Both the position numbers and the translations under genes were made by a program. Below are positions 1 to 60,688 of a DNA stretch of 60,688 bases, in pieces. Origin of the DNA: Alphaproteobacteria bacterium UBA2964 (GTDB taxonomy: Bacteria; Pseudomonadota; Alphaproteobacteria; MPNO01; UBA2964); contig CAJJCG010000031.1 of assembly GCA_905182615.1 (NCBI GenBank), forward strand, positions 1 to 60,688. Direction: 5' to 3'. Under the pieces are notes generated by a model. That model was not told where the DNA came from. It worked only from the letters and a program-made list of their open reading frames with translations, and did not search any database. The first letter of the stretch is position 1, and every line of letters begins with the position of its first letter.

Positions 1-1091
1 TCGTTCTGTAAGATAGCGTAAAGCGGTACGGTATAGAGCCCGCCGCAGACGGCAATTGCCGTCAGGTCAAACAGGATACGCCAGTTAGCCGGACTGTTGA
101 TAAAGTCTGTCGCAGTCATTAATCCGCTGGTCGGAGCGTGGAGGCCGCGCGACGCGAAATACAAATCGAGCGTAAAGCCAGTCAAAGCGAGGGCGCTCAA
201 TGGTACATATTTGGCGGATACTTCGCCTTTAAGAAGCCTGGTGCACCAGTAGGAACCGATCCCGATCCCGAGCGAGAATGTCACCATGAGTAGGGTCACG
301 ACGCTGGCATCACCGCCGAGCAGGATTTTGCTGAAATTGGGGAATTGCGACAGAAACGTTGCGCCAGTTAGCCAAAACCAGGAAATCCCCATGATCGAAA
401 GAAAGACCGAACGGGTTTCCCGAGCACGGGCGACCATGCGCCAGGTCTCCTGGAAGATATTGGTATTGATCTTCAGGTCAGGGTCCGCGGCGTCGGCTTT
501 GGGGATTGCCCGGCTCGCAACCCAGCCTAACAGAGCGACGATCAGCAAGCTGGCGGAGACGATGGAAATGCCCTGATCCGCCACAATCAGAAGTCCTCCG
601 GCGATGGTGCCGATCAAGATAGCGAGAAAGGTGCCGCCTTCGATCAGTGCGTTGCCGCCGATCAGCTCGTTTTCTTTCAAATGGCTCGGCAGAATACCGT
701 ACTTCAACGGGCCAAAGAACGCGGATTGGGTGCCCATCATGAACAGGACGGCGATTAGAAAGTAGGTGTTGGAGAGATAAAACCCGGCGACCGCTATCGC
801 CATAATGAAGATTTCTACGATCTTGATACGTTGGATTGATGCTGATTTCTCGAATTTGTCCGCTATCTGCCCGGCTGTCGCGGAGAACAGGAAGAACGGC
901 AGGATAAAAATGCCAGCCGCCATCGTGACCAGGATTTGCGGGCTGATGTCAGATGACTGCAGCAATCCGAAGGTGATCATCATGATCAGGGCCTGCTTCA
1001 TCAAATTGTCGTTCATTGCCCCGAGAAATTGGGTGACAAAAAGCGGCAGAAACCGCCTGGTCTTAAGAAGGTTCGGGGCTGTTTCGGTCAT
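1..1091 (-). CDS. MFS transporter, LplT-like (lysophospholipid-transporter type); C-terminus lies beyond the left edge
   Basis: Open minus-strand frame that runs off the left edge, so it is absent from the ORF track. My translation from ATG 1091-1089 reads MTETAPNLLKTRRFLPLFVTQFLGAMNDNLMKQAL...GQIADKFEKS...FGPLKYGILP...: successive hydrophobic helices resembling LplT-type MFS proteins. Confidence 0.6.
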   Translation of the reverse strand, partial: MTETAPNLLKTRRFLPLFVTQFLGAMNDNLMKQALIMMITFGLLQSSDISPQILVTMAAGIFILPFFLFSATAGQIADKFEKSASIQRIKIVEIFIMAIAVAGFYLSNTYFLIAVLFMMGTQSAFFGPLKYGILPSHLKENELIGGNALIEGGTFLAILIGTIAGGLLIVADQGISIVSASLLIVALLGWVASRAIPKADAADPDLKINTNIFQETWRMVARARETRSVFLSIMGISWFWLTGATFLSQFPNFSKILLGGDASVVTLLMVTFSLGIGIGSYWCTRLLKGEVSAKYVPLSALALTGFTLDLYFASRGLHAPTSGLMTATDFINSPANWRILFDLTAIAVCGGLYTVPLYAILQN

Positions 1092-1097
1092 GTTGGG

Positions 1098-1736
1098 TTA
1101 TTTAGACTTTGTGACGGCAGTTACGACATAAAGCGGATCAGAGTCACCGGGGTTTGGAGAAATATTTTCGAATTCGGGTGCTTCAAAGCCACCAGCTTCG
1201 TTGAAATAGTAGCCAACCAGCTTGGCGTGGCTGATATCGTCCATCTGGTGCCATAATGCGATGGCTTTGGTCGGGAAACATCTGTTGGAAAACGAGATGA
1301 TGCAGCGGCTGCCCGGGCGCAATACACGCGCTATTTCACCAAAAACGTGAACCGGGTGGATCAGATACTGGACCGAGACGGTGATCATACAGCCGTCGAA
1401 CGAGTTATCTGCAATCGGCAGGGTTGGGTTGGTACTTAGATTATGGACCAATCGTTCTGTAAGCTGTGCGTTGTCGTCAAGCTCGACCTGATTCATGCCG
1501 ATCCCGGTGACGCTTTTGTACTCAACATCCCAGGGCAGGTGGGACACGCAGCTCGACATGAGATCAAGCAGGTCGCCGCCAGCGGGCAGATGTTCACGGA
1601 AATAGTCGTTTAGCGCCGCGCAGGCATGGTCATCGATATGGGTGACCAGACGCGGCTGTTCGTAAAAAATTCCGTCATCGGACTCGTCGGTCCGCAGAAA
1701 GTGCTCCGGCTGGAGCTGATCACTGTCATTGGCCAT
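1098..1736 (-). CDS. class I SAM-dependent methyltransferase (Methyltransf_11-like)
   Basis: 212 aa. LLDLMSSCVSH, FDGCMITVSVQYL and VLRPGSRCIISF resemble the SAM-binding motif region. There is a 3-nt gap to the upstream TauD gene and a 6-nt gap to the downstream MFS gene, consistent with an operon. Confidence 0.6.
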   Translation of the reverse strand: MANDSDQLQPEHFLRTDESDDGIFYEQPRLVTHIDDHACAALNDYFREHLPAGGDLLDLMSSCVSHLPWDVEYKSVTGIGMNQVELDDNAQLTERLVHNLSTNPTLPIADNSFDGCMITVSVQYLIHPVHVFGEIARVLRPGSRCIISFSNRCFPTKAIALWHQMDDISHAKLVGYYFNEAGGFEAPEFENISPNPGDSDPLYVVTAVTKSK

Positions 1737-1739
1737 GTC

Positions 1740-4501: not shown

Positions 4502-4933
4502 ATGAGAATGGCTGACGAGAGAGTTGCTTCAACAAAACCCCGTATTCGGCACACGATGCTTCGCGTGAAAGACCTCGACCGGTCGGTTAAATTCTATGCC
4601 GAGGTCATGGGTATGCAGGAATTCCGCCGTAATGCGAATGAAGGTGGCAAATACACCGTCGTTTTCATGGGGTTCGGTGACGAGAACTCTGATCCCGCGA
4701 TTGAGCTGACCTATAACTGGGGTCAAGACGATGGATATGAGCTGGGAACAGGCTTTGGCCATGTCGCCATCGGTTATCCGGATATCTATGAGGTCTGCAA
4801 AAAGGTTGAGGCATTTGGCATGGAAGTGCCGCGTCCACCGGGGCCGCTGAAACATTCGGGTCCCAACGGCCCGGTTATCGCCTTTATCCGCGACCCCGAC
4901 GGCTATTCCATCGAGCTTGGCCAAAGGGCGTAA
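4502..4933 (+). CDS. gloA: lactoylglutathione lyase (glyoxalase I), VOC superfamily
   Basis: 143 aa. HTMLRVKDLDRSVKFY ... IELTYNW ... GHVAI ... IAFIRDPDGYSIEL closely tracks GloA. Start could be ATG 4508. Confidence 0.75.
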   Translation: MRMADERVASTKPRIRHTMLRVKDLDRSVKFYAEVMGMQEFRRNANEGGKYTVVFMGFGDENSDPAIELTYNWGQDDGYELGTGFGHVAIGYPDIYEVCKKVEAFGMEVPRPPGPLKHSGPNGPVIAFIRDPDGYSIELGQRA

Positions 4934-13085: not shown

Positions 13086-13943
13086 ATGTCTCGACGTTCG
13101 ACCTTCAGAAAATTTTCGCGCCGGTTTGCGCTGGTATTGTTGTGCGCGCCTTTGCTGACGGGGTTTTCATTTGAAGCCCTGTTTGCACCTCAGTCTTACC
13201 TGCTTGAAAAATGGGCGGCGCATGACGCGGCATCGAAAGCGATTATCGATCACAGTGAATGGGACAGGCTTCTTAAGCTCTATGTTGTAAAAAAATCGGA
13301 TGGTATCACCCGGTTTGCCTATAAGCGGGTATCCAAATTGGATCGTCGTCGGTTGGACGGCTATATCCGCGACATATCGAAGACAAAAATCGGCAAGTTC
13401 AATCGCGATGAGCAGTTCGCCTTTTGGGTAAACCTCTATAACGCCCGAACGGTGAAGGTGATCCTCGATCACCCTGATGCAGAGTCGATCCGAGATATTG
13501 ATATTTCACCGGGCTTCTTTGCGGATGGGCCCTGGGACAAAAAGATGATCGTGGTTGATGAGATCATCTTGTCTTTGAATGATATCGAGCACGGCATTCT
13601 ACGGCCGATCTATCAAGATCCGTATATTCATTACGCGGTGAATTGCGCGTCAATAAGCTGTCCAAATCTGCTGCCAGTTGCCTTCTCGGCAAAGAACTAC
13701 GGAACATTGCTCGACAAGGCGGCGCGCGCTTACATCAATCACCCGCGTGGTGTGAGGGTTGAGCAGGGGCAGATTAAGGTCTCGAGCATCTATGTCTGGT
13801 TTGCAGAGGATTTCGGCGGTGAGGCAGGCGTGCTTGAACACATAAAAAAATACACTGATCGCGAGCGTGTCCGGGTCATCCTACACAGCCGGAAATCAAT
13901 AGCCGGTCACGGGTATGACTGGACGCTTAATGACGACGGCTAG
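13086..13943 (+). CDS. DUF547 domain protein, probably exported
   Basis: 285 aa with an N-terminal hydrophobic segment. FWVNLYNA and HYAVNCASISCPNL motifs as remembered for DUF547. Confidence 0.6.
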   Translation: MSRRSTFRKFSRRFALVLLCAPLLTGFSFEALFAPQSYLLEKWAAHDAASKAIIDHSEWDRLLKLYVVKKSDGITRFAYKRVSKLDRRRLDGYIRDISKTKIGKFNRDEQFAFWVNLYNARTVKVILDHPDAESIRDIDISPGFFADGPWDKKMIVVDEIILSLNDIEHGILRPIYQDPYIHYAVNCASISCPNLLPVAFSAKNYGTLLDKAARAYINHPRGVRVEQGQIKVSSIYVWFAEDFGGEAGVLEHIKKYTDRERVRVILHSRKSIAGHGYDWTLNDDG

Positions 13944-13948
13944 CCGGT

Positions 13949-14656
13949 CTATTGATCGTTGCGAGCTGTAAACCGGAGATTAGCAATCGCAGAACGGGAT
14001 TTAACCCCGGTATCATCGGTATCGGCGGAAATTGCGATATGGCTAGGGGCGGGACCGTTCGCACGGAATAGCTTTCGGTAGTCCGCCGCAATATCAATCG
14101 TTTCAGTCATCCATTGGAAAAGCGGCGCATTTGTACTGCGTTTGATTACGATCATACCGCGATCTGGCAAATGAGGGTTGGTAAAACTCGCGCCCGTCTT
14201 GTGCTTTCCGCCCCACATATAGGTAATGACTCGGCCACTCGGTGGTAGGCCGATAAAACTGGATAGAGTGTCGCCAATTGATGTCCAGATGCTGCGTTCT
14301 TTTTCTGCCATTGGAAACCAGACATGGACCGCAATCGGCCGGTCACCTCCACCTTTCTTTGTAGCATCTGTAGCTGGTGGTGCCTTTTCAACACGCCAGC
14401 GCCAGCGGAGGATAGGATAGTCTCTTCCGCCTGTGAGCGGGCGTACGAGCATACCAAACGCGTCCATAGCATTAGCCGTCAGAGCGCCGTTGGCTGATTT
14501 TTTAAAGGCGGTTGGCATGACGCCGGGGATCGTGATGTTCTGCCAGCCCGTATCGTCTGGTCCGCCGTAAAGCGGGATGAGGACAGTGGCTGCCCCACTG
14601 GAAATCATCCCCAATGACAGCAGCAGGGGCAGGGCAGCTTTCGTAATCTGGTTCAT
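13949..14656 (-). CDS. DUF3047-like exported protein
   Basis: 235 aa with a signal-peptide-like LPLLLSLGMISSGAA. WRWRVEK...GGGDRPIAVHVWF resembles DUF3047. Its start overlaps the upstream stop (ATGA). Confidence 0.45.
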   Translation of the reverse strand: MNQITKAALPLLLSLGMISSGAATVLIPLYGGPDDTGWQNITIPGVMPTAFKKSANGALTANAMDAFGMLVRPLTGGRDYPILRWRWRVEKAPPATDATKKGGGDRPIAVHVWFPMAEKERSIWTSIGDTLSSFIGLPPSGRVITYMWGGKHKTGASFTNPHLPDRGMIVIKRSTNAPLFQWMTETIDIAADYRKLFRANGPAPSHIAISADTDDTGVKSRSAIANLRFTARNDQ

Positions 14657-15411
14657 GCGGGAACGGGGTCAATCAGCCCAAGCCGCTCAAGGCTTTTGGC
14701 CTGCAAGGCCCAACGACGTTCGGAAAATCCTTTAACGGCGCGCCAGAGAACAGCGTTGTCATGAACCAGCGCTTTAATGCAGGCATCCCAGATACCTTTG
14801 ATTGCCAAGACGGTTTCCAGACGCTCTTGTTCGGTTAACTGAGCGTTGGCGCTGACCAGCTGACCATAGGCTACGTGCCGCACTTCGTCCTGGGTGACAC
14901 GACGGTTGATTGCCTGAAACAGCGGGCAGCGGATGTCGTCAGATAGTTCATGCTGCAATGTCAGGGCTTCGCTTTCGAGAACCACGTGGACCGCGAAAAC
15001 CAGCCCCGTAGGGGGGCCTTTCCAATTTACCAGCTGCTTGGTTGCTTCTCTGAAGCCATCCGGTATGAGGGCCGGCATCCCGACGCGTTCGAGGTAGGCG
15101 CGATACACCTTTGCGTGCCGTTCTTCATCCGCAGCCTGATATTCGAGACAAGCGCTGAGGTCTGCATCAGGTGAGTCCGCGAGCAACATTTTACAGGCTG
15201 CAGCGGTTGCTTCCTCACCGGCCATTAAGGCGCCAAGCGCCCGTCCAATAAAGCGCTGCGTTAAAAAATTGGGTGGAGAAGGGTGGATAGACCAATCGAT
15301 ATCCTTTTCGATCTGCCACTGACCGTTTTCGGCATTGTTGATAAGCGTCGCGATTTGATGTTCGCGGGAGCTCTGAGACGACGGAGGCGTTACTATTTGA
15401 GTTGGCAGCAT
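14653..15411 (-). CDS. ferritin-like di-iron protein of unknown function
   Basis: 252 aa. Two ExxH motifs (DEERHAKVY, QDEVRHVAY) in predicted helical context, as in four-helix-bundle di-iron oxygenases. Confidence 0.45.
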   Translation of the reverse strand: MLPTQIVTPPSSQSSREHQIATLINNAENGQWQIEKDIDWSIHPSPPNFLTQRFIGRALGALMAGEEATAAACKMLLADSPDADLSACLEYQAADEERHAKVYRAYLERVGMPALIPDGFREATKQLVNWKGPPTGLVFAVHVVLESEALTLQHELSDDIRCPLFQAINRRVTQDEVRHVAYGQLVSANAQLTEQERLETVLAIKGIWDACIKALVHDNAVLWRAVKGFSERRWALQAKSLERLGLIDPVPA

Positions 15412-15511
15412 AGGATCACGATGTCCGTTTAGGTTACAGACATGTGGTAACGGCTTGGAAATTTAGAAGTAACAGTAGGATGACATATTCGTTACTTCGC
15501 CTGCTTAGAAA

Positions 15512-15814
15512 TTATCCTACAGGCTGTTTACAGGCCAGAAGCAGGAACATAATCAGCAAAAAAGCGCTGCCGGTGACGGCCGCGACGATGCTAAACCGCC
15601 AGGCGATACGGCAACCGGATTCGTCAAAGTACAGATCGGGCTTCATCAGGTAGGACGGCTTGATGAAATTTTTCTTACGAAGCCACATGTGTTTCGGCGG
15701 TTCCGGCGGCACCAGCAAATGGTCATTAAGGATACGCGAGAAGACAGCCATGGCTGCCGCCCCGGCGAGAAAAACCCACACAAAAACGCTCGAATGTTCC
15801 CAAAGACCGCACAT
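15512..15814 (-). CDS. small hypothetical membrane protein
   Basis: Start at ATG 15814 (MCGLWEH...), 2 nt after the upstream OCD stop. Two hydrophobic segments (VFVWVFLAGAAAMAVF, IVAAVTGSAFLLIMFLLLA). No family recognised. Confidence 0.3.
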   Translation of the reverse strand: MCGLWEHSSVFVWVFLAGAAAMAVFSRILNDHLLVPPEPPKHMWLRKKNFIKPSYLMKPDLYFDESGCRIAWRFSIVAAVTGSAFLLIMFLLLACKQPVG

Positions 15815-15816
15815 GA

Positions 15817-16926
15817 TTAGTCGCGAATATCCTGTAATAGCCATTCGGTCGGTATCTCGTTGCCGAGACCAGCTTCTTTGGCGAGTTCAAATGTCCGTCC
15901 GGCAACCGCATGGAACTGGTTGCCTTGCAGATTTCCGCGTTCTGAATAGGTGATTTGGTCGTTCGATGTCCGACCACGATCAGTGTTTTCCATGATGTCG
16001 GAGAAATAGATCACCTTGTCGGGCATGGCAACGCCATGGGCGCGGGTCCCAAGCGGTTTTTGTCGCAGTCCGTTATCGACATCGGGGCGCGCTGCATAGG
16101 TAACCCATTCATCTGCGAGGGCCATTTCGGGGATGCCTTCGGGTGCCGGGGCGTTGCCGAACCGGAAATAGACATCGACCTTGTCCTGCGCCTCGGGGCT
16201 GACCATGCCGGTGCCACCACCGACGTTGAGAACATGCATGCCGGGTTGCAGGAGGTCGGCGCGAACGACGGGTACCGATGCATTTGTGCAGCCCGCGACT
16301 ATATCGGCGCCGTTATAGGCATCTTCCGGGTTGTCGCAGGAAATGACTTCGATATTCCATTTGGCGCGCATTTCATCGGCAAAGGCGTCGCGATTGGATT
16401 TGGTCGGGCTGTAGACTTGCAGCTTCTTGATATCGCGGACGCACATAAAGGCTTCCATATGGCTGCGCGCCATGCCGCCAGCGCCCAGCATACACACGAT
16501 CTCTGAATCCTCGCGGCTCATATATTTGACGCCAATACCGCCATCGGCACCGACCCGTTTATGTTGCAAAACCCCGTCATTAAGAAAAGCCAGAGGCTCG
16601 CCGGTCTCGACGCTGGTGAGCAGGATCAGGCCACAAAACAGACCGGGCTCGCTGCAATACTTATGGTGCGTCCGGTTGCCATCGATGACCGTCTCATAGG
16701 TGACGTCGGACTTCATGCGAATGGCGAAATAGCCGCGGGTTGAGCCGCCTTCCATGGTGCCCCATTGATAGACCTTGCCGTCAGATGTTGGGATTTGGAT
16801 ATCAATCCGCGGGCGGCACACGGCTTCTCTCTCTGCGAGATCGGCATAGGCCTGTTCCAAGACGTCGATGGTGTCCTGCATTGTCAGGACCTGATCGACC
16901 ATGTCGTTATTGATCACTAGGGTCAT
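15817..16926 (-). CDS. ornithine cyclodeaminase/mu-crystallin family protein, copy 1
   Basis: 369 aa. Family-like N-terminus (VLTMQDTIDVLEQAY) and central Rossmann motif MLGAGGMARSH. Confidence 0.7.
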   Translation of the reverse strand: MTLVINNDMVDQVLTMQDTIDVLEQAYADLAEREAVCRPRIDIQIPTSDGKVYQWGTMEGGSTRGYFAIRMKSDVTYETVIDGNRTHHKYCSEPGLFCGLILLTSVETGEPLAFLNDGVLQHKRVGADGGIGVKYMSREDSEIVCMLGAGGMARSHMEAFMCVRDIKKLQVYSPTKSNRDAFADEMRAKWNIEVISCDNPEDAYNGADIVAGCTNASVPVVRADLLQPGMHVLNVGGGTGMVSPEAQDKVDVYFRFGNAPAPEGIPEMALADEWVTYAARPDVDNGLRQKPLGTRAHGVAMPDKVIYFSDIMENTDRGRTSNDQITYSERGNLQGNQFHAVAGRTFELAKEAGLGNEIPTEWLLQDIRD

Positions 16927-22451: not shown

Positions 22452-22482
22452 TAAAAATAGACAAGATACTATAAATTTAGGG

Positions 22483-25379: not shown

Positions 25380-25402
25380 CGGGTAGGGATAGGAGAAATA
25401 TA

Positions 25403-27639: not shown

Positions 27640-27717
27640 TAGCTGACTGGCCGAGTTGTTTTAAAATTAAGAATAGATAGCCCACTTCGGGGGCTGTGTT
27701 GAAAAAGGTGATTTAGC

Positions 27718-32309: not shown

Positions 32310-32330
32310 GACCGTCAGTAGCGACCAAAT

Positions 32331-34820: not shown

Positions 34821-34829
34821 GTATCTTCT

Positions 34830-40524: not shown

Positions 40525-40618
40525 GCACCACGTGTTTTCTTCTCCGGCGAAAATCGGGCTGTAACCGCCCGACCTGAGATAAAAATTAGAGATATTTGTT
40601 GTTAAGAAAGGGAGTGTA

Positions 40619-40990: not shown

Positions 40991-41318
40991 TGTTGATCCA
41001 AGAGCAGCTGATCTGCCAGAAGGCGGAGAGGTTCTTGCCCATATTCCTGACGAAGAGGCCGCAATGCGAGCCTTCGCCAAGCGGATCGCGGAAGTTCCAG
41101 AGGGTGAACCCATCCCGATTGAAGTGGTTCAGGAAGGTTTTACGGCGATGGTGCGGCTTTATTCCGTTAAATTCCAGCTTGGTGAACGCTGGGAACCGTT
41201 TGCAGAAGACAGCATGGTACCTGCAACCGCTGCCATGATTATGTGCACGACAATGATGCGTGCCGTAAATGTCGAGGTGTTTGAATTGGGGATGTGGCAG
41301 TCATGGTCTGGTGCCTAA
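40971..41318 (+). CDS. hypothetical acidic protein, no family recognised
   Basis: ATG 40971 (MSMSSPDVDP...) overlaps the Rieske gene 3' end by 20 nt. The ORF ends 16 nt before the next amidohydrolase start. Called from operon position only. Confidence 0.4.
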   Translation: MSMSSPDVDPRAADLPEGGEVLAHIPDEEAAMRAFAKRIAEVPEGEPIPIEVVQEGFTAMVRLYSVKFQLGERWEPFAEDSMVPATAAMIMCTTMMRAVNVEVFELGMWQSWSGA

Positions 41319-41334
41319 GCATAAGAGGAGTGTA

Positions 41335-43869: not shown

Positions 43870-43973
43870 TTTCGATATTTTTAAAGTCGGAGTTTATCTG
43901 ATCGTTCAGCGGGCTCGTTCAGGATGGAAGTTGCCGGAAGCAGAAGCGGTCATGGAAATAGGAGACCTTTAGA

Positions 43974-44798
43974 ATGAGTCAGCTAGAGAAAGCCGAGAAA
44001 CTTTTGGCGATGCATAAGAACGACGACATTTTGGTCCTGCCAAATGCTTGGGATGTCGCTAGCGCCTGCGTGTTGGTAGATGCCGGGTTTAAGGCAATTG
44101 CGACAACCAGCGGTGGATGTGCCTTCTCGGTTGGATTCTGTGATGGCGAACATATCGGCCGGGATGGCATGACGGAGATCGTTCGTCGTATGGCCTGTGG
44201 TGTTCCGGTGCCGGTAAGTGCTGATATGGAAGCTGGTTATGGTGGAAACCCCGATGATGTGATGGCTACCGTTAAGGCCGCGCTCGATGCAGGGGCGGTG
44301 GGCGTCAATATTGAAGACAGCAACAAAAGCGGTCCGAGGCGGCTTCATAATCTCGACCTTGCGGTTTCGCGTGTCCGTGCAGCGCGTAAAGCCGCTGACG
44401 ATTTTGGTATCCCGGCGGTGATTAATGCCCGAACAGATGGATATATGCTTGGCAGTGACGAAGACATGTTCGATGAAACTGTCAAACGCGCCAATGCCTA
44501 TCTCGCAGCAGGTGCTGATTGTGCGTTTGTGATCGGTGCGCGCGATGGTGACCTTATTGGTCGGCTCGCTGCGTCAATAGATGGTCCAATGAATGTCTTG
44601 GCAGGTCCCGGGACACCGCCGGTACCGCAATTAAAAGAGATGGGCGTGAAGCGGGTGACTGTTGGCGGCAATATAGCCAAGGCGGCCTATACGTTGGTCA
44701 AAACGGCTGCTGAAGAGTTAATGCAGAGCGGCACCTATGAGTTTGCCGCTGGAGCGTATTCGCAGCCTGAAATGCACCGTATTATCAAGGGCGAGTGA
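43974..44798 (+). CDS. isocitrate lyase/PEP mutase superfamily protein (methylisocitrate-lyase-like)
   Basis: 274 aa. VLPNAWDVASACVLVDAGFKAIATTSGG and GVNIED motifs. Confidence 0.7.
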   Translation: MSQLEKAEKLLAMHKNDDILVLPNAWDVASACVLVDAGFKAIATTSGGCAFSVGFCDGEHIGRDGMTEIVRRMACGVPVPVSADMEAGYGGNPDDVMATVKAALDAGAVGVNIEDSNKSGPRRLHNLDLAVSRVRAARKAADDFGIPAVINARTDGYMLGSDEDMFDETVKRANAYLAAGADCAFVIGARDGDLIGRLAASIDGPMNVLAGPGTPPVPQLKEMGVKRVTVGGNIAKAAYTLVKTAAEELMQSGTYEFAAGAYSQPEMHRIIKGE

Positions 44799-51769: not shown

Positions 51770-51937
51770 AGAATTAGGTTTCCTATATCATAATTTAAAG
51801 ACATCACATCACAGGGGAAGAGCTCCGGCAACTGCGTAGACTGCCAAAGTGAATGCAGTTAGGCCGCTGTCGTTGATCGACCTCCTCATTCAGGTATGAT
51901 CCTGCCCAATACGGCAGAAAATAGAACAAAGATAGTT

Positions 51938-53446
51938 ATGAAAAATCATACGGTTAGAACTTATTCCTCAAAAGAAAATTTAGCCCGCGAAGACGAGTTG
52001 GCCTGGAAACTTGGGGCGCTGGCGGTTGATCCAGTCCCGGTCGATGATGATGTCGCCGACATGATTATGAACCGGATCATCGATAACGCTTCTGTTGCTA
52101 TTGCAGCTATCAATCGTTCACCCCCTGCTGCAGCGCGTGCGCAGGCATTGGCACATCCCCGCGATGGCGGTGCAACTGTATTTGGCGTCGCCAATAATCA
52201 GCAGTTTGATGCCGAGTGGGCGGCCTGGGCCAACGGCACAGCAGTTCGCGAGCTGGATTATCACGACACATTTTTGGCGGCCGATTATGCGCATCCCGGT
52301 GATAACATCCCTCCGTTATTGGCGGTCGCTCAGCAACTCGGAAAATCCGGTCAAGAATTGCTGAATGGTCTGGCGACCGGTTATGAAATTCAGATTAATC
52401 TCGTGCGGTCGATTTGCTTGCATGAACACAAAATCGATCATGTCGCGCATCTCGGCCCATCTGCCGCTGCGGGTATTGGCACAATGTTGGGATTGCCGGT
52501 CGAGACAATTTATCAAGCTGTACAGCAAGCGTTGCACGTAACGACATCGACGCGTCAATCTCGCAAAGGTGAGATTTCCAGCTGGAAGGCCTTTGCGCCG
52601 TCCCATGCTGGTAAGCTGGCGATTGAAGCGGTTGATCGCTGTATGCGCGGCGAGGGGGGGCCGTCTCCGATTTATGAAGGAGAAGACGGTGTCATTGCCT
52701 GGATTCTGTCGGGGCCGGAAGCTATCTATTCAGTGCCATTACCCGAAATTGGTGAGTCGAAACGCGCAATTCTCGACTCCTTCACCAAGGAGCATTCCGC
52801 GGAATATCAAAGTCAGGCGCTGATTGATCTGGCCTTTCGGATGAAAGAACAGATCAGTGATTTTGAAGCGATTGATCGTATCGTTATTCAGACCAGTCAC
52901 CATACTCATTACGTAATTGGTACGGGCGCTGGCGATCCGCAGAAAATGAATCCAACAGCGAGCCGGGAAACGCTCGATCATTCGATCATGTATATCTTTG
53001 CGGTCGCTCTGCAGGATGGCGAATGGCACCATATTCGGTCTTATTTGCCTGAGCGGGCGGCACGCGAAGATACCGTGCGACTGTGGAACAAGATTGAAAC
53101 TGCTGAAGACGCCGAGTGGACGACGCGGTATCACGAAACCGACCCCGATAAGTTAGCCTTTGGCGGGCGCGTCGAAATCACTTTGAAAGATGGCTCGGTT
53201 ATCATGGATGAGTTGGCCGTTGCGAATGCTCATACGAATGGTGCACGGCCGTTTGCCCGGGAAAACTATATTCACAAGTTCCGGACTTTGACGGAAGGGC
53301 TGGTCTCCGTGATCGAGCAGGACCGTTTTCTTGATCTCGTTCAGCGCTTGCCGGAATTGACCGCTGAAGAAGTCCGGCAAATCAATGTTGTGCTGGATGT
53401 AGCTACTCTTGAGTCAGCAGCCCGCGATACAAAAGGAATATTCTGA
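51938..53446 (+). CDS. prpD: 2-methylcitrate dehydratase
   Basis: The track ORF starts at 51896; ATG 51938 is preferred. About 500-aa MmgE/PrpD protein directly followed by prpB and prpC. Confidence 0.75.
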
Positions 53447-54351
53447 TGTTATTTGCAACTAAATCAGCCGCTGAAAAACGATCGGGTTTCCGTGCTGGGT
53501 TGAACTCGGGAAAAATCCTCAAGTTTCCCGGCGCTCATGCCCCTTTGGTTTCGATGGAAATTGAGCGGCAAGGTTTCGATGGCGTTTATATCTCGGGCGC
53601 TGCGCTCTCCGCTGACCTCGGCCTACCTGATATCGGTCTTACGACATTGTCTGAGGTTACCCAGCGTGGTCGTCAAATTTCTCGCGTGACGTCGCTACCG
53701 GCTATTATTGATATCGATACTGGATTTGGCGAACCAATGAGTGCTGCCCGCACGGTGCAGGAGCTCGAAGAACTCGGCATCGCCGGGTGCCATTTGGAAG
53801 ATCAGGAAAACCCTAAGCGCTGCGGCCATCTCGATAACAAATCACTGGTCAGTTTGGATGAAATGGCGCGGAAGATCATGGCGGCATCGGATGCCAAAAC
53901 CGACCCCAACTTTGTGCTTTTTGCACGAACTGATGCGCGGGCATCGGAAGGAATGGATGCGGCGATTGATCGGGCGAAGGCTTATGTCGACGCGGGCGCG
54001 GACGCTATCTTCCCGGAGGCTATGGAAGGGGAGAAGGAATTCGAAATATTCCGCAAGGCGATCGACGTGCCAATGATGGCAAATATGACAGAGTTCGGAA
54101 AATCACCGTTGTTGTCAGCCCAACAACTCGAGAACCTCGGTTATAATCTTGTGATCTATCCGGTAACCACGATGCGGCTCGCAATGGGCGCGGTACGTGA
54201 TGGCCTGGCGGAAATTGCCGAGACCGGCACTCAAAATGGTTTGATCGATAAGATGCATAGCCGGAAAGAACTGTACGAACTTATCCGCTATCAGGATTAC
54301 AATAATTATGACCAGTCGGTCTTTAACTTCAAAGTGCGCGAAGAGGGATAA
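53446..54351 (+). CDS. prpB: 2-methylisocitrate lyase
   Basis: 301 aa. IIDIDTGFG and EDQENPKRCGHL (KRCGH) motifs. The start shares one nt with the prpD stop (TGATG). Confidence 0.85.
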   Translation: MLFATKSAAEKRSGFRAGLNSGKILKFPGAHAPLVSMEIERQGFDGVYISGAALSADLGLPDIGLTTLSEVTQRGRQISRVTSLPAIIDIDTGFGEPMSAARTVQELEELGIAGCHLEDQENPKRCGHLDNKSLVSLDEMARKIMAASDAKTDPNFVLFARTDARASEGMDAAIDRAKAYVDAGADAIFPEAMEGEKEFEIFRKAIDVPMMANMTEFGKSPLLSAQQLENLGYNLVIYPVTTMRLAMGAVRDGLAEIAETGTQNGLIDKMHSRKELYELIRYQDYNNYDQSVFNFKVREEG

Positions 54352-54356
54352 GCGAG

Positions 54357-55487
54357 ATGGCAAAAGAACCACGGATTTATAAAGGTCTTGATGGGGTTGT
54401 CGTCGACGAAACGGCGATCTCAAAGGTTATGCCTGAAACCAACTCGCTGACCTATCGTGGCTATGCTGTGCAGGACCTCTGTGAGTATTGTTGCTTTGAA
54501 GAGGTGGCGTATCTGTTGTGGCATGGCCAGCTCCCGACCCGGACACAGTTGCGGACGTTCAAGAAGGACGAACGCAGCCGCCGCAAAATTTCCCGGGATC
54601 ATCTGGCCGTAATTCAAAAGTTTCCAAAACGCGCCCATCCGATGGATACTATTCGGACCTCGGTTAGCTATCTCGGTACGACAGAGATTGCCTGGGGCGG
54701 AGAACCCGTCGAAGCTGATATGGAACGGTCGATGAATTTGTTGGCAAAAATACCAACAATGATCGCGACCGACTATCGTTTGCGGAAGGGCAAGCGTCGT
54801 ATTGCGCCACGTACCGATCTTTCTTTCTCCGAAAACTTTTTGAATATGTGCTTTGGCGAAGTCCCGCCGAAGCAGGTGGTGAAGGCATTTGATATTTCAC
54901 TGATCCTGTATGCCGAGCACAGCTTTAATGCGTCGACCTTTGCCACGCGTGTTGTGACGTCGACGATGTCAGATGTTTATAGCGCCGTAACAGCGGGCAT
55001 CGGTGCCCTCAAAGGCCCACTCCATGGTGGTGCTAATGAAGCCGTCATGAATATGCTGCTGGAAATTGGCCATCCGGATAAAGCCGAATCCTGGCTGCGC
55101 GATGCTTTCGCCAATAAACGCGTCGTGATGGGATTTGGACATCGGGTCTACAAATGGGGTGATAGCCGGGTGCCGACGATGCGGGGCTGCCTTGAAGGTC
55201 TCGCGCGCTGGAAAAATGATCGTAAATGGATCGAGATTGAAGATGTTCTTGAGGACATCATGGTCAAGGAAAAGAAAATTCACCCCAATCTCGATTATCC
55301 GGCGGGCCCGGCCTATTACATGATGGGTTTCGACATTGATATGTACACGCCAATCTTCGTGATGAGCCGGATTATCGGCTGGACGGCGCATTACATGGAA
55401 CAGAATGCGGCGAACCGTTTAATCCGCCCGCTTTCCGCCTATACCGGCGTTAAACAAAGGCGGGTAAAGCCGATTGCCCATCGCTGA
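54357..55487 (+). CDS. prpC: 2-methylcitrate synthase / citrate synthase family
   Basis: 376 aa. LTYRGY, LKGPLHGGANE and GFGHRVYK citrate-synthase motifs. The prp assignment comes from context. Confidence 0.8.
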   Translation: MAKEPRIYKGLDGVVVDETAISKVMPETNSLTYRGYAVQDLCEYCCFEEVAYLLWHGQLPTRTQLRTFKKDERSRRKISRDHLAVIQKFPKRAHPMDTIRTSVSYLGTTEIAWGGEPVEADMERSMNLLAKIPTMIATDYRLRKGKRRIAPRTDLSFSENFLNMCFGEVPPKQVVKAFDISLILYAEHSFNASTFATRVVTSTMSDVYSAVTAGIGALKGPLHGGANEAVMNMLLEIGHPDKAESWLRDAFANKRVVMGFGHRVYKWGDSRVPTMRGCLEGLARWKNDRKWIEIEDVLEDIMVKEKKIHPNLDYPAGPAYYMMGFDIDMYTPIFVMSRIIGWTAHYMEQNAANRLIRPLSAYTGVKQRRVKPIAHR

Positions 55488-56018
55488 CCTTCAACGCTTG
55501 CCACCCAGCCCTAATTATCGGGCTTTAGCGGGACCGCACTGGAAGCTTATTCTGCGGCCCTAGTTTGATACTGTGGCGTTGGGATTTGTTGCCAAGTGTT
55601 TCTGATCGCTGTCGCGGGCATGGTCCGCTGTTTCAATTTCAGACGGATCGGGCGAGAGGTTTGCAGATGACCTTGCTTTTCCGGGATTGAACCTTTCGCA
55701 TTATGCGGAGGCCTTAGGCAAAATATCGCAATCCCATCGTGCGTTTCGTCAAATTTGTGATGATTGGGAAAACGCTTTTTCGCCAAAGAAAACTCTTCTT
55801 CGGGGCAGCGTTCGGCCATGAGTCCTAAAAAGGTGGATATGCTCCTTGGCTCTGCTGATCGGGTGACGCCGTTTTTTGGATGGAATTGCGCTGGCGAAGC
55901 GTTGGAAAGTGCCCGACACAAATCTGTTTATCTGCAAACAGGGCCATTTTTGCGGCGCGTTGGGCCTGTCGCATGATGCGGCGCCATTGCAACGGTTCGC
56001 TGATCTGCTTTTGCAGAC

Positions 56019-56936
56019 TTAAGGGGAATTGCTTTCAGGCGGAACCTGTTTCCGGAGCATCGCTTCACGGCGCACAATATAGCCGCAGGAGGCTAGAACG
56101 ACGGCACCGCCAGAAATCGCCCAGGCATCCGGTACTTCACCGAAGAAAACAAAGCCAATGCCAACGGCAATTATGATCCGCATGTAGTCCAGTGGCGCGA
56201 TAATCGTCATTTCCCCTGCGGCATAGGCGCGGGTCAGACAATATTGCCCGGTTGAGCCGACAAAACCGAGGGCAAGTAACCAAAGCCATTCCTCGCCTGC
56301 TGGCATCCTAAAATCTAGAGCCGCTGGGATCGCCAGGATGATGAAGCCCCAGAATAGAAAATAGAAAACGATCCGATTTGACGGTTCGGTTTTTGTCAGA
56401 TTCTTCATTGTGGTTAGGGCACAGGTCGCGAGGATCGCGGCCAGCAGAGCGACCAGTGCCGCCGGTTCAATGCCGGTTTGCGGCTGGACAACCATAAGGA
56501 TGCCGCAAAAACCAATGATCGTTGCCAGGGCGCGGCGGAACCGGATGCGTTCGCCGAGAAACAGCGCTGCCATGATGATCGACCAGAGAGGGATCGTGAA
56601 GGTCAGCACTGTCGCGTCAGCCAGGAGCATATGGTGAACGGCGTAAATGCCCGCGAGCAAAGAAGTCGCGCCAAAAAATGCGCGCCAGAAATGGGCAAAT
56701 GGCCGTTCAGTTTTCAAAACGCCAATGCCGTTGATGGCTACCCAGGGAAGCATAAACATCAGACTCGTGAAAAATCTGAACATGCCGACTTCAGCGATGG
56801 GCAGGGTTTGCATGAGAACTTTGGCAATCCCGAACATGCCGGTCAGCAGGGAAACGGCAACCAACATCCACAAGACACCGAGGACATTTGAACTTATGCC
56901 GGTGCGGCGGGCCGCATTTTCGGATTCATTTGACAA
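56019..56936 (-). CDS. DMT-superfamily (EamA-like) transporter
   Basis: 305 aa with about ten hydrophobic helices in two repeated halves. Confidence 0.7.
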   Translation of the reverse strand: MSNESENAARRTGISSNVLGVLWMLVAVSLLTGMFGIAKVLMQTLPIAEVGMFRFFTSLMFMLPWVAINGIGVLKTERPFAHFWRAFFGATSLLAGIYAVHHMLLADATVLTFTIPLWSIIMAALFLGERIRFRRALATIIGFCGILMVVQPQTGIEPAALVALLAAILATCALTTMKNLTKTEPSNRIVFYFLFWGFIILAIPAALDFRMPAGEEWLWLLALGFVGSTGQYCLTRAYAAGEMTIIAPLDYMRIIIAVGIGFVFFGEVPDAWAISGGAVVLASCGYIVRREAMLRKQVPPESNSP

Positions 56937-58872: not shown

Positions 58873-58934
58873 CTAGGTTGGTTCTGTTGAATTTCAGAGT
58901 GGACATATAATTCCGAGGTTAAATTTCCAGAGTT

Positions 58935-58966
58935 TGAGGCGGTGGCCTCATGCTCTGGTTTATTTG
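58935..58966 (+). terminator. candidate intrinsic terminator after the DsbA-like gene
   Basis: TGAGGC-GGTG-GCCTCA is a perfect 6-bp stem, followed by the T-rich TGCTCTGGTTTATTTG. Confidence 0.35.
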
Positions 58967-59197
58967 TCTAATGTAGACCTTCTACGATAACCGTTATTAA
59001 GAAATAGTTTTTGCTGAGTATCTTAAAGCGTGCGTTCAAAGATCTCTTACGGTACGACGCACTACCCGAAACGGCCGTAATCCGAGAAAAAATTGAAGCG
59101 AATAGAGAAGTTGATCAGCCATTTTGTCCGTCTTCTGAAGGCGATCTTATTTATTCTCTTATCGTCTGCCGTCAGCGGCTATGGAACAAAATAGTGA

Positions 59198-59742
59198 GAT
59201 TGTATACGGGAGGATTTCTGGTTCATCGTAGTGACCGAAGGGAACGAAGATGAGACAGAAATCGCAGACACGACAGACGGGTGTCGCCAAGGCGATCAAG
59301 GACATTCGCCGGACTACCCGCAAGCAGTATGTAACAGTATCTCCGGACAAAATTACCTCCGGCTCACCTTCAGTTTTTGCGCTACTTGGAACTTTATCAT
59401 ATTGAGAAGGATTATCTTCTCGTGCATGCCGGTGTTGCTCCGGGAGTGCCGATTGAAGGTCAAGGGGCCGAAGACTTTCTTTGGATCCGCGAAGAGTTTT
59501 TGCGATCAAAAGCCCATCATGGGCATTGTATTGTCCATGTCCATTCAATCGTTGATATGCCGGAGTTCCTCCTAAATCGGATCGCTATTGGTACCGGTGC
59601 CTATTATATTGGCCGGTTAACATGCCTGATGCTTGAAGGGGATGAGCGCCGGTTTATGCAGACCTTATCTCGGAATTTAGTATCGTGCTGCGTGTTCGAC
59701 ATCAGGGTTTTCTGGATCATTACACAATCTGAAGAGGCGTGA
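59198..59742 (+). pseudogene. decayed PP1/lambda-type metallophosphoesterase (Ser/Thr phosphatase) remnant
   Basis: The C-terminal part (frame of 59377..59742) reads YLLVHAGV.PG...EDFLWIREEF...IVHVHS...NRIAIGTGAYY.GRLTCL. The family motifs VHGHT and DTGA are mutated to VHVHS and GTGA. An upstream piece in another frame reads VVTEGNED (compare RGNHE). Stops and frameshifts separate the pieces. Confidence 0.45.
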
Positions 59743-59960
59743 TTACTGGAAGAGCCTGACGATCTTTTGGATGCGGCAGATGAGCTCGCTAATCTGATTT
59801 CACCCACCCTTGCCGCATATGTGTTGAGTAGCGTAGAGGACCAGAAGGATGAGCCTGTTATAGAGACATCTCGGGTTTCCAAAAACGGGCTGCTTGCTAA
59901 ATTTTCTCTGTCACAGCAGCTCATTGAGCGGAAGTTTTGGCGGGTTCAGGAATTGATGTC

Positions 59961-60688
59961 ATGTTTCTGAAGGGGTTTGCAAACGGGAACAGTTTTTATC
60001 CCGACCCAGTTTTGCGGCAGCAAGGAGATCTCGATTTTCTGATCCGGAAACAGGATTTACAGGCCGTGATAGAGTTTCTGGCTCCTTATGGGTTTGGGTT
60101 TCGGGCCGCGCCCCTAAGTCGTTGGGGTACAATTTATGACGCAGGTTTTGTGCCCGGCATGACCTCTGATGGCAGCTGTGACCTCGATATTCACGTCCAT
60201 CCTGATTATTATCCCGCCCATTGCTCGCTGACGACCGAACGACTGTTTGCTGAATCAATGCTCGTTGGTGCGGGTAGTTTTACCGTGCGGGTTCCGTCGC
60301 ACGAGCACGCTTTACTTTTATGCGTGACGAATATTGCGAAGGACAAGTTTAATGTGTTTAGCATTCGCAAAGTCATCGACGCGATGGTGCTTATACGGGC
60401 AACGCCGAATCTCGACTGTGAAAAAATTATAGAGCTCGCCTCGGAAGGAAGTTTTCTCATGCCAACGCGAGTTTTCTGCTCCCTTCTGCTCGCTCTGGGA
60501 TTTTATCAGAACACGATTCCGGACATATTGCTGAAGCCTGCACCGCGCTGGTGGAAAAAATCATTCCAGACCGTTGTTCGGAGGTTTCGGCGTCTGTTCC
60601 CGGGTGACCCCTCTTTGTTGCCGATTTTATGGCGGGAATGGGCGCTATGCGCAGAGCCGGCTGTTGCATTGTACAATTTGAAGTTACG
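59961..60688 (+). CDS. nucleotidyltransferase-family protein (NTP_transf_5-like), runs off the right edge; N-terminal part appears frameshifted
   Basis: Open frame to the window end, so it is absent from the track. My translation: (LAGSGIDV)MFLKGFANGNSFYPDPVLRQQGDLDFLIRKQDLQAVIEFLAPYGF...DLDIHVH..., i.e. the LKG...Y.dP..R...D.D.L motif of that family. The expected N-terminal ~60 aa sit in another frame (59767..59970). Confidence 0.4.
   Translation, partial: MFLKGFANGNSFYPDPVLRQQGDLDFLIRKQDLQAVIEFLAPYGFGFRAAPLSRWGTIYDAGFVPGMTSDGSCDLDIHVHPDYYPAHCSLTTERLFAESMLVGAGSFTVRVPSHEHALLLCVTNIAKDKFNVFSIRKVIDAMVLIRATPNLDCEKIIELASEGSFLMPTRVFCSLLLALGFYQNTIPDILLKPAPRWWKKSFQTVVRRFRRLFPGDPSLLPILWREWALCAEPAVALYNLKL

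Follow-up and report, generated by a model that had tools for sequence, protein, structure and literature searches.

A core chromosomal mosaic of tandemly duplicated oxygenase, oxidase and decarboxylase genes in a marine alphaproteobacterium, with a predicted role in the one-carbon trimming of organic acids

The window analyzed here, a 60,688-nucleotide stretch of DNA from Alphaproteobacteria bacterium UBA2964, is one entire contig (C31) of a 2.45-Mb metagenome-assembled genome (MAG; 123 contigs, 72.7% complete). No 16S rRNA gene was found in this genome, and the nearest public genomes are MAGs from seawater that carry the label Alphaproteobacteria or Rhodospirillaceae. We find that the window is a block of core chromosome from an uncultured marine alphaproteobacterium, in which paralogs of several enzyme families stand side by side, and we lean, if by a modest degree of confidence, towards interpreting it as some ten short operon-like modules that together make up a mosaic of peripheral oxidative catabolism and whose duplicates widen the substrate range of a one-carbon acid-trimming chemistry. 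The modules comprise: (1) C-H hydroxylases, namely six TauD-type dioxygenases and two amidohydrolase-fold oxygenases (AROs) with a Rieske ferredoxin; (2) alcohol or 2-hydroxy-acid oxidases, namely five short-chain dehydrogenases/reductases (SDRs) and three FMN_dh proteins; (3) decarboxylases, namely five thiamine diphosphate (ThDP) enzymes of a benzoylformate decarboxylase (BFD)-related subfamily, two other ThDP enzymes and three UbiD proteins; (4) a CoxL-type Mo-hydroxylase; and (5) funnels, viz., a PrpD-like protein with an isocitrate lyase (ICL)-like lyase, prpDBC and a hydantoinase. What is said below on the structure and evolution of the block is well supported, and its biochemical role is what we infer by reasoning.

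Under this interpretation, organic acids would enter the cell, originally through a TctCBA transporter, and would be hydroxylated by TauD or ARO enzymes; FMN_dh or SDR enzymes would oxidize the hydroxylated acids to 2-oxo acids, and ThDP or UbiD enzymes would decarboxylate the resulting acids. The aldehyde would then be oxidized, possibly by the Mo-hydroxylase, and the products would pass to PrpD-like/ICL-like cleavage and the methylcitrate cycle, thereby feeding pyruvate, succinate or propionyl-CoA routes. Duplicates differing in substrate would widen the range of this chain, whose central logic would be a mandelate-pathway-like one-carbon trimming of organic acids resistant to β-oxidation.

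We scanned about 58 open reading frames (ORFs) of the window against Pfam, along with all ORFs of 40 aa or more that lay between the confident genes or beyond them. This reproduced exactly the gene counts of the original prediction, which had been made from the letters of the window alone (six TauD, three UbiD, seven ThDP, three FMN_dh, five SDR, two ornithine cyclodeaminase [OCD] and two Amidohydro_2). The genes of the modules, assigned by Pfam unless stated otherwise, are as follows:

1740-2678, minus strand: TauD1, Fe/2-oxoglutarate dioxygenase (Pfam TauD, E 1e-67 to 1e-70 for the trio TauD1-TauD3)
2764-3618, plus strand: TauD2, Fe/2-oxoglutarate dioxygenase (Pfam TauD, as TauD1)
3625-4482, plus strand: TauD3, Fe/2-oxoglutarate dioxygenase (Pfam TauD, as TauD1)
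4961-6445, plus strand: UbiD1, prFMN-type decarboxylase (UbiD_N, UbiD, UbiD_C)
6459-7949, plus strand: UbiD2, prFMN-type decarboxylase in tandem with UbiD1 (UbiD_N, UbiD, UbiD_C)
7984-8745, plus strand: SDR1 (adh_short_C2)
8758-9522, plus strand: SDR2 (adh_short_C2)
9525-10493, minus strand: TauD4 (Pfam TauD, E 1e-53)
10384-11223, plus strand: SDR3 (true start probably near 10480)
11338-12981, plus strand: UbiD3
15817-16926, minus strand: OCD1, ornithine cyclodeaminase/mu-crystallin (OCD_Mu_crystall)
17415-18527, minus strand: OCD2, ornithine cyclodeaminase/mu-crystallin (OCD_Mu_crystall)
18538-20400, minus strand: ThDP_A (TPP_enzyme_N and TPP_enzyme_C above cut-off; TPP_enzyme_M at 19.8 bits, below the 30.4 cut-off)
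20727-22451, plus strand: ThDP_B
22483-23583, plus strand: FMN_dh 1
23580-25379, plus strand: ThDP_C
25403-27193, plus strand: ThDP_D
27718-29493, plus strand: ThDP_E
30525-32309, plus strand: ThDP_F
32484-34820, plus strand: CoxL/XDH-type Mo-hydroxylase large subunit
35754-36839, minus strand: FMN_dh 2, 2-hydroxy-acid oxidase/dehydrogenase (FMN_dh, E 1e-99 to 1e-102 for the pair with FMN_dh 3)
36876-37946, minus strand: FMN_dh 3, 2-hydroxy-acid oxidase/dehydrogenase (FMN_dh, as FMN_dh 2)
38111-39205, plus strand: TauD5, divergent, 364 aa (Pfam TauD, E 3e-35; no NCBIfam hit)
39316-40524, plus strand: ARO1 (Amidohydro_2; nearest solved structures AROs)
40619-40990, plus strand: Rieske ferredoxin, 123 aa (CPH..CPWH)
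40962-41318, plus strand: conserved acidic ORF, 118 aa, overlapping the end of the Rieske gene (no Pfam family)
41269-42561, plus strand: ARO2 (Amidohydro_2; nearest solved structures AROs)
42568..43869, plus strand: PrpD-like, MmgE/PrpD-family protein 1 (no NCBIfam hit, no equivalog)
43909..43972, plus strand: tctA remnant, last 20 codons (by alignment to the tctA 3' end of a congener, G005)
43974..44798, plus strand: ICL-like, PEP-mutase/isocitrate-lyase superfamily protein 1 (PEP_mutase, E 6e-78; far below the prpB cut-off)
45851-47308, plus strand: dihydropyrimidinase/hydantoinase (NF009941 at 793 bits, cut-off 647)
47305-48093, minus strand: SDR4
48114-49076, minus strand: TauD6
49088-50776, minus strand: ThDP_G (NF006052 above cut-off)
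51896..55487, plus strand: prpD-prpB-prpC, methylcitrate cycle for propionyl-CoA (NCBIfam)
57422-58180, plus strand: SDR5

Ten genes, from ThDP_B through an α/β hydrolase, form one co-directional plus-strand run (20727..35753). The eight adjacent paralog pairs that had been claimed for the window hold up, with identities of 73% (OCD1/2), 71% (UbiD1/2), 61% (ARO1/2, the Amidohydro_2 pair), 58% (TauD2/3), 57.5% (ThDP_E/F), 57% (SDR1/2), 56% (ThDP_C/D) and 52% (FMN_dh 2/3). A ninth pair, NIPSNAP1/2, is 53% identical with its genes non-adjacent, and UbiD3 is 27-30% identical to UbiD1 and UbiD2. The 55 genes of the contig include 15 near-adjacent paralog pairs, as against 0.032 per gene in the rest of the genome (Poisson p 8e-10), i.e., an approximately 8-fold greater density; the sole comparable contig is C19, on which about nine EamA genes form an array. 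The paralog density is thus real and far beyond chance.

A scan with ThDP_D of one genome per species recovered 75 loci holding a homolog. In the 19 nearest species (L001-L019), the genes are ordered as OCD, ThDP_A, then ThDP_B, FMN_dh, ThDP_C, ThDP_D, (YCII), ThDP_E, (DUF3891), ThDP_F, XDH, hydrolase, and then FMN_dh 2 and FMN_dh 3, with each paralog having its own ortholog (98% down to about 66% identity) and with a single kind of rearrangement, in that some species have the E/F segment inverted. In a tree of 144 ThDP homologs, the C and D clades are sisters (support 97), as are the E and F clades (support 100); all four contain the same species, the single-copy homologs of other Alpha- and Betaproteobacteria fall outside them, and ThDP_A forms its own clade of 14 sequences. 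By this topology, ThDP_C and ThDP_D separated a single time, as did ThDP_E and ThDP_F, and both splits came before the approximately 19 species radiated; each pair thus goes back to one tandem duplication in an ancestor shared by this marine family.

The other pairs are likewise old. In the reference congener (G003; OX638326.1, a closed 4.15-Mb chromosome), the orthologs of all the window paralogs are 69-95% identical to them, which exceeds every paralog identity and makes all eight pairs older than the diversification of the genus; the TauD1-TauD2-TauD3 trio is also present in congeners. Both OCD copies are found in L002-L008, L011 and L016, with OCD1 missing in L009, L010 and L012, and FMN_dh 2 and 3 are both present in L006, L008-L010, L013 and L014. 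Orthologs of UbiD1 are 90-96% identical within the genus and 79-85% in other genera; UbiD2 adjoins UbiD1 in the genus and in G016, whereas G013 and G018 showed no UbiD2 next to it. The missing OCD1 in three species and the patchy UbiD2 adjacency beyond the genus indicate that the pairs differ in age. The original prediction had set local expansion against an ancient, dispersed origin, and the tree and collinearity divide that alternative: the duplications are both local and ancient, and they are not dispersed. In sum, the modules grew by tandem duplication in the family ancestor and have stayed side by side since.

Among the ThDP enzymes, ThDP_B is a true member of NF006203 (PRK08327; 662 bits, cut-off 456), whereas ThDP_A and ThDP_C-F reach 223-247 bits against the same model and appear to constitute one separate, uncharacterized subfamily related to BFD. 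For ThDP_C-F, BFD is the next best model after NF006203, and it is the nearest solved structure of the subfamily, with ThDP_A-F scoring 110-163 bits against the NCBIfam BFD equivalog (NF005485), below its cut-off of 493. ThDP_D aligned to the BFD structure keeps the equivalents of Glu47 and His70. All ThDP copies keep the catalytic Glu and the (G/P)DG..NN motif, with ThDP_E and ThDP_F having PDG for GDG; hence, there is no support for members of the pairs being pseudo-enzymes or regulatory or structural subunits. The FMN_dh proteins resemble lactate oxidase, glycolate oxidase, hydroxymandelate oxidase and mandelate dehydrogenase, and FMN_dh 1 lies directly upstream of ThDP_C and overlaps it, an arrangement reminiscent of the mandelate pathway with its FMN-dependent (S)-mandelate dehydrogenase MdlB and its decarboxylase MdlC. 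The window differs from that pathway in having five ThDP paralogs of the subfamily rather than one, plus two other ThDP enzymes, and in having a Mo-hydroxylase instead of a racemase and an NAD-dependent aldehyde dehydrogenase. In distant taxa, an FMN_dh gene is directly upstream of this type of ThDP gene in 10 of 52 loci and an XDH-like gene is within 6 kb of it in 14 of the 52; in Burkholderiaceae MAGs, it has ARO, Rieske and TctC genes beside it.

A locus of a lake MAG (L020; VGEU01000001.1) combines UbiD, SDR, UbiD, FMN_dh, ThDP, a Rieske/acidic-ORF-like stretch (matched only via a spurious antisense 175-aa ORF), ARO, PrpD-like and ICL-like genes within about 20 kb, in a compact single-copy version; the neighbor maps of this and another high-GC locus (L021) come from tblastn. 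This arrangement looks like an unduplicated counterpart of modules that in the window extend across 40 kb.

The two Amidohydro_2 (PF04909) proteins (E 1.8e-23 for ARO1 and 1.2e-21 for ARO2) had originally been included in a count of twelve (de)carboxylase-type enzymes. Their best matches among solved structures are the SfbO-type AROs (8SM6-8SM9) and AibH2 (6M1W_B). AROs are defined by an N-terminal D-x-H and a C-terminal D-x-P-H-x-[D/E] motif (PMC13154177) and are recognized by a partner, a small Rieske ferredoxin (C-x-H ... C-x2-H, <250 aa), encoded within three genes (PMC10811679). ARO1 (D44-A-H46, DYPHWD at 353) and ARO2 (D65-C-H67, DYPHWD at 381) are the sole ORFs of the genome carrying both motifs, and the Rieske protein encoded between them has C45-P-H and C85-P-W-H. 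The motifs, nearest structures and Rieske partner together identify the pair as AROs rather than decarboxylases, and the count of (de)carboxylase-type enzymes accordingly falls to ten. The γ4 position is Trp in both, which marks the low-potential Mn/Fe-type class, and we predict that the module at 39316..42561 encodes a multicomponent dinuclear (Mn/Fe or Fe2) monooxygenase. It shares the PF04909 fold, the DxH and DxPHxD motifs, the aromatic γ4 residue and the small CxH..CxxH Rieske protein with the known systems AibH1H2-AibG, SfbO and PtmU3 (PMC7782822, PMC10811679, PMC13154177). It differs from them in that catalysis is predicted for both paralogs, neither being a zinc subunit of the AibH1 type, in the absence of a reductase gene nearby and of the sulfonate-binding arginines of SfbO, and in the additional 118-aa acidic ORF. 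The trio of Rieske, acidic-ORF and ARO genes is kept in the same order in two Burkholderiaceae loci (acidic-ORF counterparts at L034:2931-3296 and L047:1819-2181; 29-31% identity), making the acidic protein a candidate fourth component of ARO monooxygenases.

The consistent pairing of paralogs, side by side across many species, also raises the question of whether they are subunits of hetero-oligomeric enzymes, such that each pair makes one enzyme and the substrate range is no wider. Precedents exist in phenylphosphate carboxylase α/β and the AibH1/AibH2 hydroxylase (PMC7782822), the latter a heterotetramer of two amidohydrolase-fold paralogs of which AibH1 is non-catalytic and lacks the terminal Asp of the C-terminal motif, and the best NCBIfam model for UbiD1 and UbiD2 is the phenylphosphate carboxylase β subunit. 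However, both UbiD proteins score far under the cut-offs of these models (TIGR02723/TIGR02724; 268-269 bits versus 469 for β and 161-166 versus 565 for α), both members of each ThDP pair keep their catalytic motifs, and both AROs keep the full DxPHxD with the Asp that AibH1 lacks, so that both are predicted to be catalytic and a pair with one non-catalytic paralog is not what is seen. Moreover, outgroup genomes have the ThDP and ARO genes in single copy, and some lineages lack OCD1 or an adjacent UbiD2. Hetero-oligomers are therefore plausible for some pairs, and as an account of the block as a whole we regard them as unlikely while giving them more weight than any other alternative.

The conserved genomic context also accounts for the apparent want of an uptake system, which had been claimed for the window and is indeed borne out for it (no ORF of 100 aa or more, and none of 40 aa or more lying outside genes, matches an ABC, TRAP, TonB or TTT family of Pfam), yet does not describe the original state. 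In five of six congeners examined (G003, G004, G005, G008, G009), tctC-tctB-tctA lies between the PrpD-like and ICL-like genes. The gap between these genes in the window is 104 bp, and 64 nt of it (43909-43972) encode the last 20 TctA residues (RARSGWKLPEAEAVMEIGDL and stop in the window, versus RARSGWKLPDAEPVMEVGDL and stop in G005). This remnant is the scar of an approximately 3.3-kb deletion of tctC-tctB-tctA, making the absence of the transporter secondary and recent. The stretch is held by more than 20 seawater metagenomes; contigs from independent ones cross the junction unbroken, and the deletion is therefore a real natural allele and no assembly artefact. The setting recalls TctCBA-linked carboxylate catabolic operons, and TctC genes also flank the ThDP/ARO unit in Burkholderiaceae MAGs. 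The substrates would originally have been imported by a TctCBA system within the block, which this strain has since deleted; natural alleles with and without the importer thus offer a built-in comparison for finding the substrate.

Two other membrane proteins named at the outset, an LplT-like MFS protein and one DMT protein, are both present. The G003 ortholog of the former is a 1136-aa LplT-Aas fusion with acyltransferase and acyl-ACP-synthetase-like parts, of which the window protein is the N-terminal part, which points to lysophospholipid/membrane-lipid recycling and not to a nutrient importer. The DMT protein belongs to the EamA family. Elsewhere in the genome, about nine EamA/DMT genes, seven of them head-to-tail, occur on contig C19 (about 3.7-20.2 kb) beside a UbiD and a ThDP gene, and contig C8 combines three TauD genes with an SDR gene, one of CoxL type and more EamA genes; DMT permeases may be the preferred partners of these enzyme modules in this lineage. 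A further sign of decay is an ABHD18-like hydrolase pseudogene, in which only residues 1-115, 391-416 and 414-461 of the 462-aa G003 ortholog are matched by tblastn, with about 275 codons lost internally and a frameshift. Together with the tctCBA scar, it suggests ongoing gene loss in this strain.

The content of the window reflects an expansion of the whole lineage. This incomplete genome has 45 TauD, 34 UbiD, 23 TPP_enzyme_N, 33 CoxL-type large subunit, 46 SDR and 11 OCD genes; no FeS or FAD subunit genes adjoin the CoxL/XDH-type large subunit gene of the window. Counts in near-complete congeners are 46-58 for TauD, 30-37 for UbiD and 18-25 for ThDP (TPP_enzyme_N), the last range being exclusive of partial MAGs of 1.4 and 1.9 Mb (4 and 14 copies). 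UbiD is present in 28-40 copies in four of five families of the order, and the TauD expansion is family-specific (45-58 in the genus versus 9-21 in other families). The window holds seven of the 16 (phmmer) to 23 (Pfam) ThDP genes and three of the six FMN_dh genes of its genome. It continues into similar content: mapping via G003 places contigs C117 (32.6 kb) on its left and C36 on its right, as parts of one collinear region of at least 120 kb, and the left flank has two more UbiD3-like genes, an SDR, two TauD genes, a CoxL-type gene, an isochorismatase pair, a TctA-TctB fusion, an FAD oxidoreductase, a nitrile hydratase and an LLM oxidoreductase. Since the window is a whole contig, absences near its ends are in part a limit of assembly.

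Regulators are correspondingly scarce. A 60-kb stretch free of them would be unusual for catabolic clusters in most bacteria. The claim that the window has no recognizable regulator is upheld by both the Pfam scan, in which no helix-turn-helix (HTH) family was found in the same sets of ORFs, and six-frame searches of the contig for TetR_N and LysR HTH domains, which gave no match. The genomes of the lineage (2.5-4.4 Mb) encode only 3-4 TetR and 2-14 LysR proteins, with UbiD genes outnumbering LysR genes; hence, the sparse control of the window follows from the small number of transcription factors in its lineage at large, and such a stretch is unremarkable within this genome. A TetR gene conserved across the genus lies between UbiD genes of the left flank (G003:C1:599211-599348; own ortholog C117:7578-7715, about 11 kb left of the window start), and a second TetR gene is found in G003 alone, between the MFS and methyltransferase genes. 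Across 19 intergenic gaps, no shared operator emerged, the only recurrent word being AAGCCCGATAAT (18 genomic hits versus about 11 expected); it is unconvincing as a common regulatory site, with three of its five window hits flanking a single gene, that for the GIY-YIG protein.

The block is represented in RNA from seawater: contigs of four marine metatranscriptomes (at least three studies) cover nearly all of it, mostly at 99% identity or above. ThDP_C, ThDP_D and YCII lie together on individual RNA contigs of 4.3-4.7 kb, and one contig of 2.2 kb (40369-42557) runs from the end of ARO1 through the Rieske gene and the acidic ORF to ARO2, indicating that each of these sets is co-transcribed. 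The word depth of the RNA is 55-145 in the TauD5-ARO module, the most strongly transcribed stretch of the window, which starts at TauD5, 46-65 over ThDP_C/D (with YCII), 1-25 in the leftmost third and no more than 0-10 at DUF547/DUF3047 and at the prp genes, with the lowest value at 13086..15844 (DUF547 to the 110-aa ORF). The more than ten-fold difference between modules shows that expression is non-uniform and argues against simple carry-over of DNA.

That only two modules are strongly expressed in situ is also compatible with an account in which the block holds a small number of pathways, each dedicated to defined carboxylic acids of the N-heteroaromatic or aromatic kind (for example, those derived from phenazine, quinoxaline, pterin or flavin), and is no general toolkit for dissolved organic matter (DOM). 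UbiD1 and UbiD2, which from their UbiD_N, UbiD and UbiD_C domains and the two UbiX-size flavoprotein genes elsewhere in the genome (C16, C58) are members of the UbiD family, have 7PDA as the closest solved structure (E 2e-92 for UbiD1), an entry cited in the paper on the phenazine-1-carboxylate decarboxylase PhdA. The Mo-hydroxylase and hydantoinase/dihydropyrimidinase would fit this, as would the riboflavin catabolic pathway, in which a ThDP-dependent heterocycle decarboxylase is followed by a xanthine-oxidase-like enzyme (PMC12746152). However, LumK and LumL of that pathway are split 20- and 23-kDa ThDP proteins and not full-length paralogs, for which reason we rejected them as a precedent for the paired ThDP enzymes. 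The window has no ring-cleaving dioxygenase, Rieske dioxygenase α subunit or P450, and 20-58 copies of these families per genome are hard to square with a handful of substrates. The UbiD proteins themselves differ from PhdA-like prFMN decarboxylases of aromatic and heteroaromatic acids in being three of approximately 34 genomic paralogs and in having no ubiX or accessory gene in the window. We consider this account improbable, falling somewhat behind the hetero-oligomeric one.

A degradation system for organosulfonates or sulfate esters, in which TauD would free sulfite and the FMN_dh and ThDP enzymes would act like sulfolactate dehydrogenase, sulfopyruvate decarboxylase and Xsc, is still less probable. 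The SlcD, ComDE and Xsc chain does proceed from a 2-hydroxy acid to a 2-oxo acid and on to ThDP chemistry, and the TauD proteins are closest to taurine dioxygenase and alkylsulfatase AtsK structures. Nevertheless, they score 124-272 bits against the taurine dioxygenase equivalog (NF007104, cut-off 313; TauD5 gives no hit), and the ThDP proteins 64-143 bits against Xsc cut-offs of 620-676. The characterized ARO SfbO works on 2-aminoethylsulfonates (PMC10811679), but its sulfonate-binding Arg232 and Arg235 are Ala and Phe in ARO2, which speaks against a sulfonate substrate for the ARO pair; Pfam families for a sulfite exporter, sulfite dehydrogenase or phosphotransacetylase were not found in the window.

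Finally, despite its dense and unusual enzyme content and the slightly lower G+C of the ARO module (about 0.49, in a window of 0.49-0.56 throughout), a horizontally acquired island or biosynthetic gene cluster is very improbable and its expected patchy presence, tRNA or integrase border and deviant composition are contradicted by the synteny, given that the window is collinear across congeners and within a closed chromosome, that the ThDP core is syntenic in at least 19 related species, that the flanks carry more genes of the same kind, that scans of the window for tRNAs and Rfam families were empty (no TPP or other riboswitch), and that its Pfam matches include no integrase, transposase, non-ribosomal peptide synthetase, polyketide synthase or terpene core enzyme. 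The question of whether the block is core or a variable island is thus settled in favor of core chromosome.

Returning to acid trimming by widened sets of paralogs, several points weigh against it. The hydroxylation-oxidation-decarboxylation chain is put together from family chemistry and gene adjacency, and the expanded subfamilies all score below equivalog cut-offs, such that the models leave their substrates unassigned. By Pfam, the window has no aldehyde dehydrogenase, racemase or CoA ligase, no FeS or FAD partner genes lie near that for the Mo-hydroxylase large subunit, and the window encodes no ferredoxin reductase for the ARO-Rieske pair. The adjacency statistic was computed from a crude genome-wide ORF set (greedy calling of the longest ORFs), and the word depth of contigs is a poor measure of expression, with some carry-over of DNA in the RNA libraries possible.

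On the side of the funnels, equivalog-level scores in the window are confined to PrpB (425 bits; TIGR02317, cut-off 354), PrpC (601; NF010636 2-methylcitrate synthase, cut-off 479) and the dihydropyrimidinase; PrpD (NF042438) falls slightly short with 870 bits against 950, and prpDBC can be assigned by these scores as a methylcitrate cycle operon. The remaining features of the window are:

3..1091, minus strand: LplT-like MFS protein, cut by the contig end (MFS_1; G003 ortholog 85% identical)
1098..1736, minus strand: SAM methyltransferase (Methyltransf_11)
4502..4933, plus strand: glyoxalase/VOC-fold protein (Glyoxalase)
13086-13943, plus strand: DUF547
13949-14656, minus strand: DUF3047
14653-15411, minus strand: weak AurF-like di-iron protein
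15512-15844, minus strand: hypothetical protein, 110 aa (kept at 51-92% in relatives)
16971-17255, minus strand: GIY-YIG protein, 94 aa, small nuclease fold, between OCD1 and OCD2
27193-27639, plus strand: YCII
29567-30409, plus strand: DUF3891
34830-35753, plus strand: α/β hydrolase
44812-45771, minus strand: DHDPS-family aldolase/lyase
50773-51447, minus strand: hypothetical protein, 224 aa, cupin-like by eye only (no Pfam hit; conserved at 78-87%)
51449-51769, minus strand: NIPSNAP1
55447..56016, plus strand: ABHD18-like α/β hydrolase pseudogene (tblastn with the G003 ortholog; Pfam ABHD18)
56019..56936, minus strand: EamA/DMT-family permease (EamA, two repeats)
57058-57411, plus strand: NIPSNAP2
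58249-58872, plus strand: DsbA/FrnE-like protein whose first CxxC position is occupied by an in-frame TGA
58873..60688, no strand: variable right end with low G+C and ORF fragments (composition profile, Pfam; not collinear with G003)
59937-60686, within the variable right end: NTP_transf_5 gene, truncated

Two minus-strand ORFs were judged spurious, one of 175 aa (40586-41113) antisense to the Rieske and acidic genes and one of 124 aa (55547-55921) antisense to the hydrolase pseudogene. The GIY-YIG gene is single-copy in the genome and is found at the same site in G003 and L004 (70%) and L002 (83%), which makes it a long-term resident and no recent mobile insertion. In the DsbA/FrnE-like gene, a TGA replaces the first Cys of the CxxC (V-TGA-P-W-C); the TGA and 15 codons upstream of it are kept in G003, with a synonymous change next to the TGA, which fits a putative selenocysteine (UxxC) protein or read-through. 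The collinearity of the entire window with G003 stops at 58856, beyond which G003 has a Dpp-type ABC transporter in place of the variable right end (58873-60688). One ORF fragment there is metallophosphatase-like by eye, with no Pfam match. Environmental RNA and DNA contigs show loose ends or diverge near 59.2-59.3 kb, indicating that the right end is a strain-variable junction.

The closest parallel to the block at the level of genome design is the SAR202 clade of Chloroflexota, for which paralog expansions have been proposed to serve the oxidation of recalcitrant DOM (Landry 2017 PMC5395668; Saw 2020 PMC6946804; Lim 2023 PMC10444878). Both show ancient expansions of oxidative-enzyme paralogs across a marine lineage, read as widening the range of hard-to-degrade molecules that can be oxidized. 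They differ in that SAR202 has expanded FMNO/LLM proteins, enolases and others, whereas here Alphaproteobacteria have expanded TauD, UbiD, ThDP, CoxL-type and SDR proteins, and in that the paralogs of the window are demonstrably tandem and syntenic. The SAR202 pangenome paper (PMC6946804) says nothing of TauD, UbiD or thiamine, and we found no literature on TauD, UbiD or ThDP expansions in this lineage, nor on UbiD or TauD expansions in marine Alphaproteobacteria. The suggestion that the window fits the picture of oceanic DOM degraders with a different repertoire, centered on ThDP, UbiD and TauD, is accordingly sound as to the repertoire; as to the picture itself, it agrees with the expansions, the few regulators and the expression in seawater, and we infer the link to carboxyl-rich DOM. 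More tentatively, and at a level of confidence that stops well short of probable, this widespread, uncultured marine alphaproteobacterial family may have independently evolved a SAR202-like strategy, in which about 50 TauD, 35 UbiD, 30 CoxL and 23 ThDP genes per genome, set in tandem-duplicated modules, expressed in situ and governed by very few transcription factors, would trim refractory carboxyl-rich DOM through hydroxylation, oxidation and decarboxylation in combination, and the ARO trio may be a new four-part variant of the Mn/Fe monooxygenases.

The case for how the large pool of carboxyl-rich, slowly degraded DOM is attacked by marine bacteria has so far been made mostly from SAR202. 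The block and the counts across its lineage suggest that a second lineage, unrelated to SAR202, has a similar genome design but an enzyme set centered on decarboxylation, and they offer expressed targets, namely the ThDP subfamily paired with FMN-dependent 2-hydroxy-acid oxidases, the highly transcribed ARO-Rieske module and the PhdA-like UbiD pairs.

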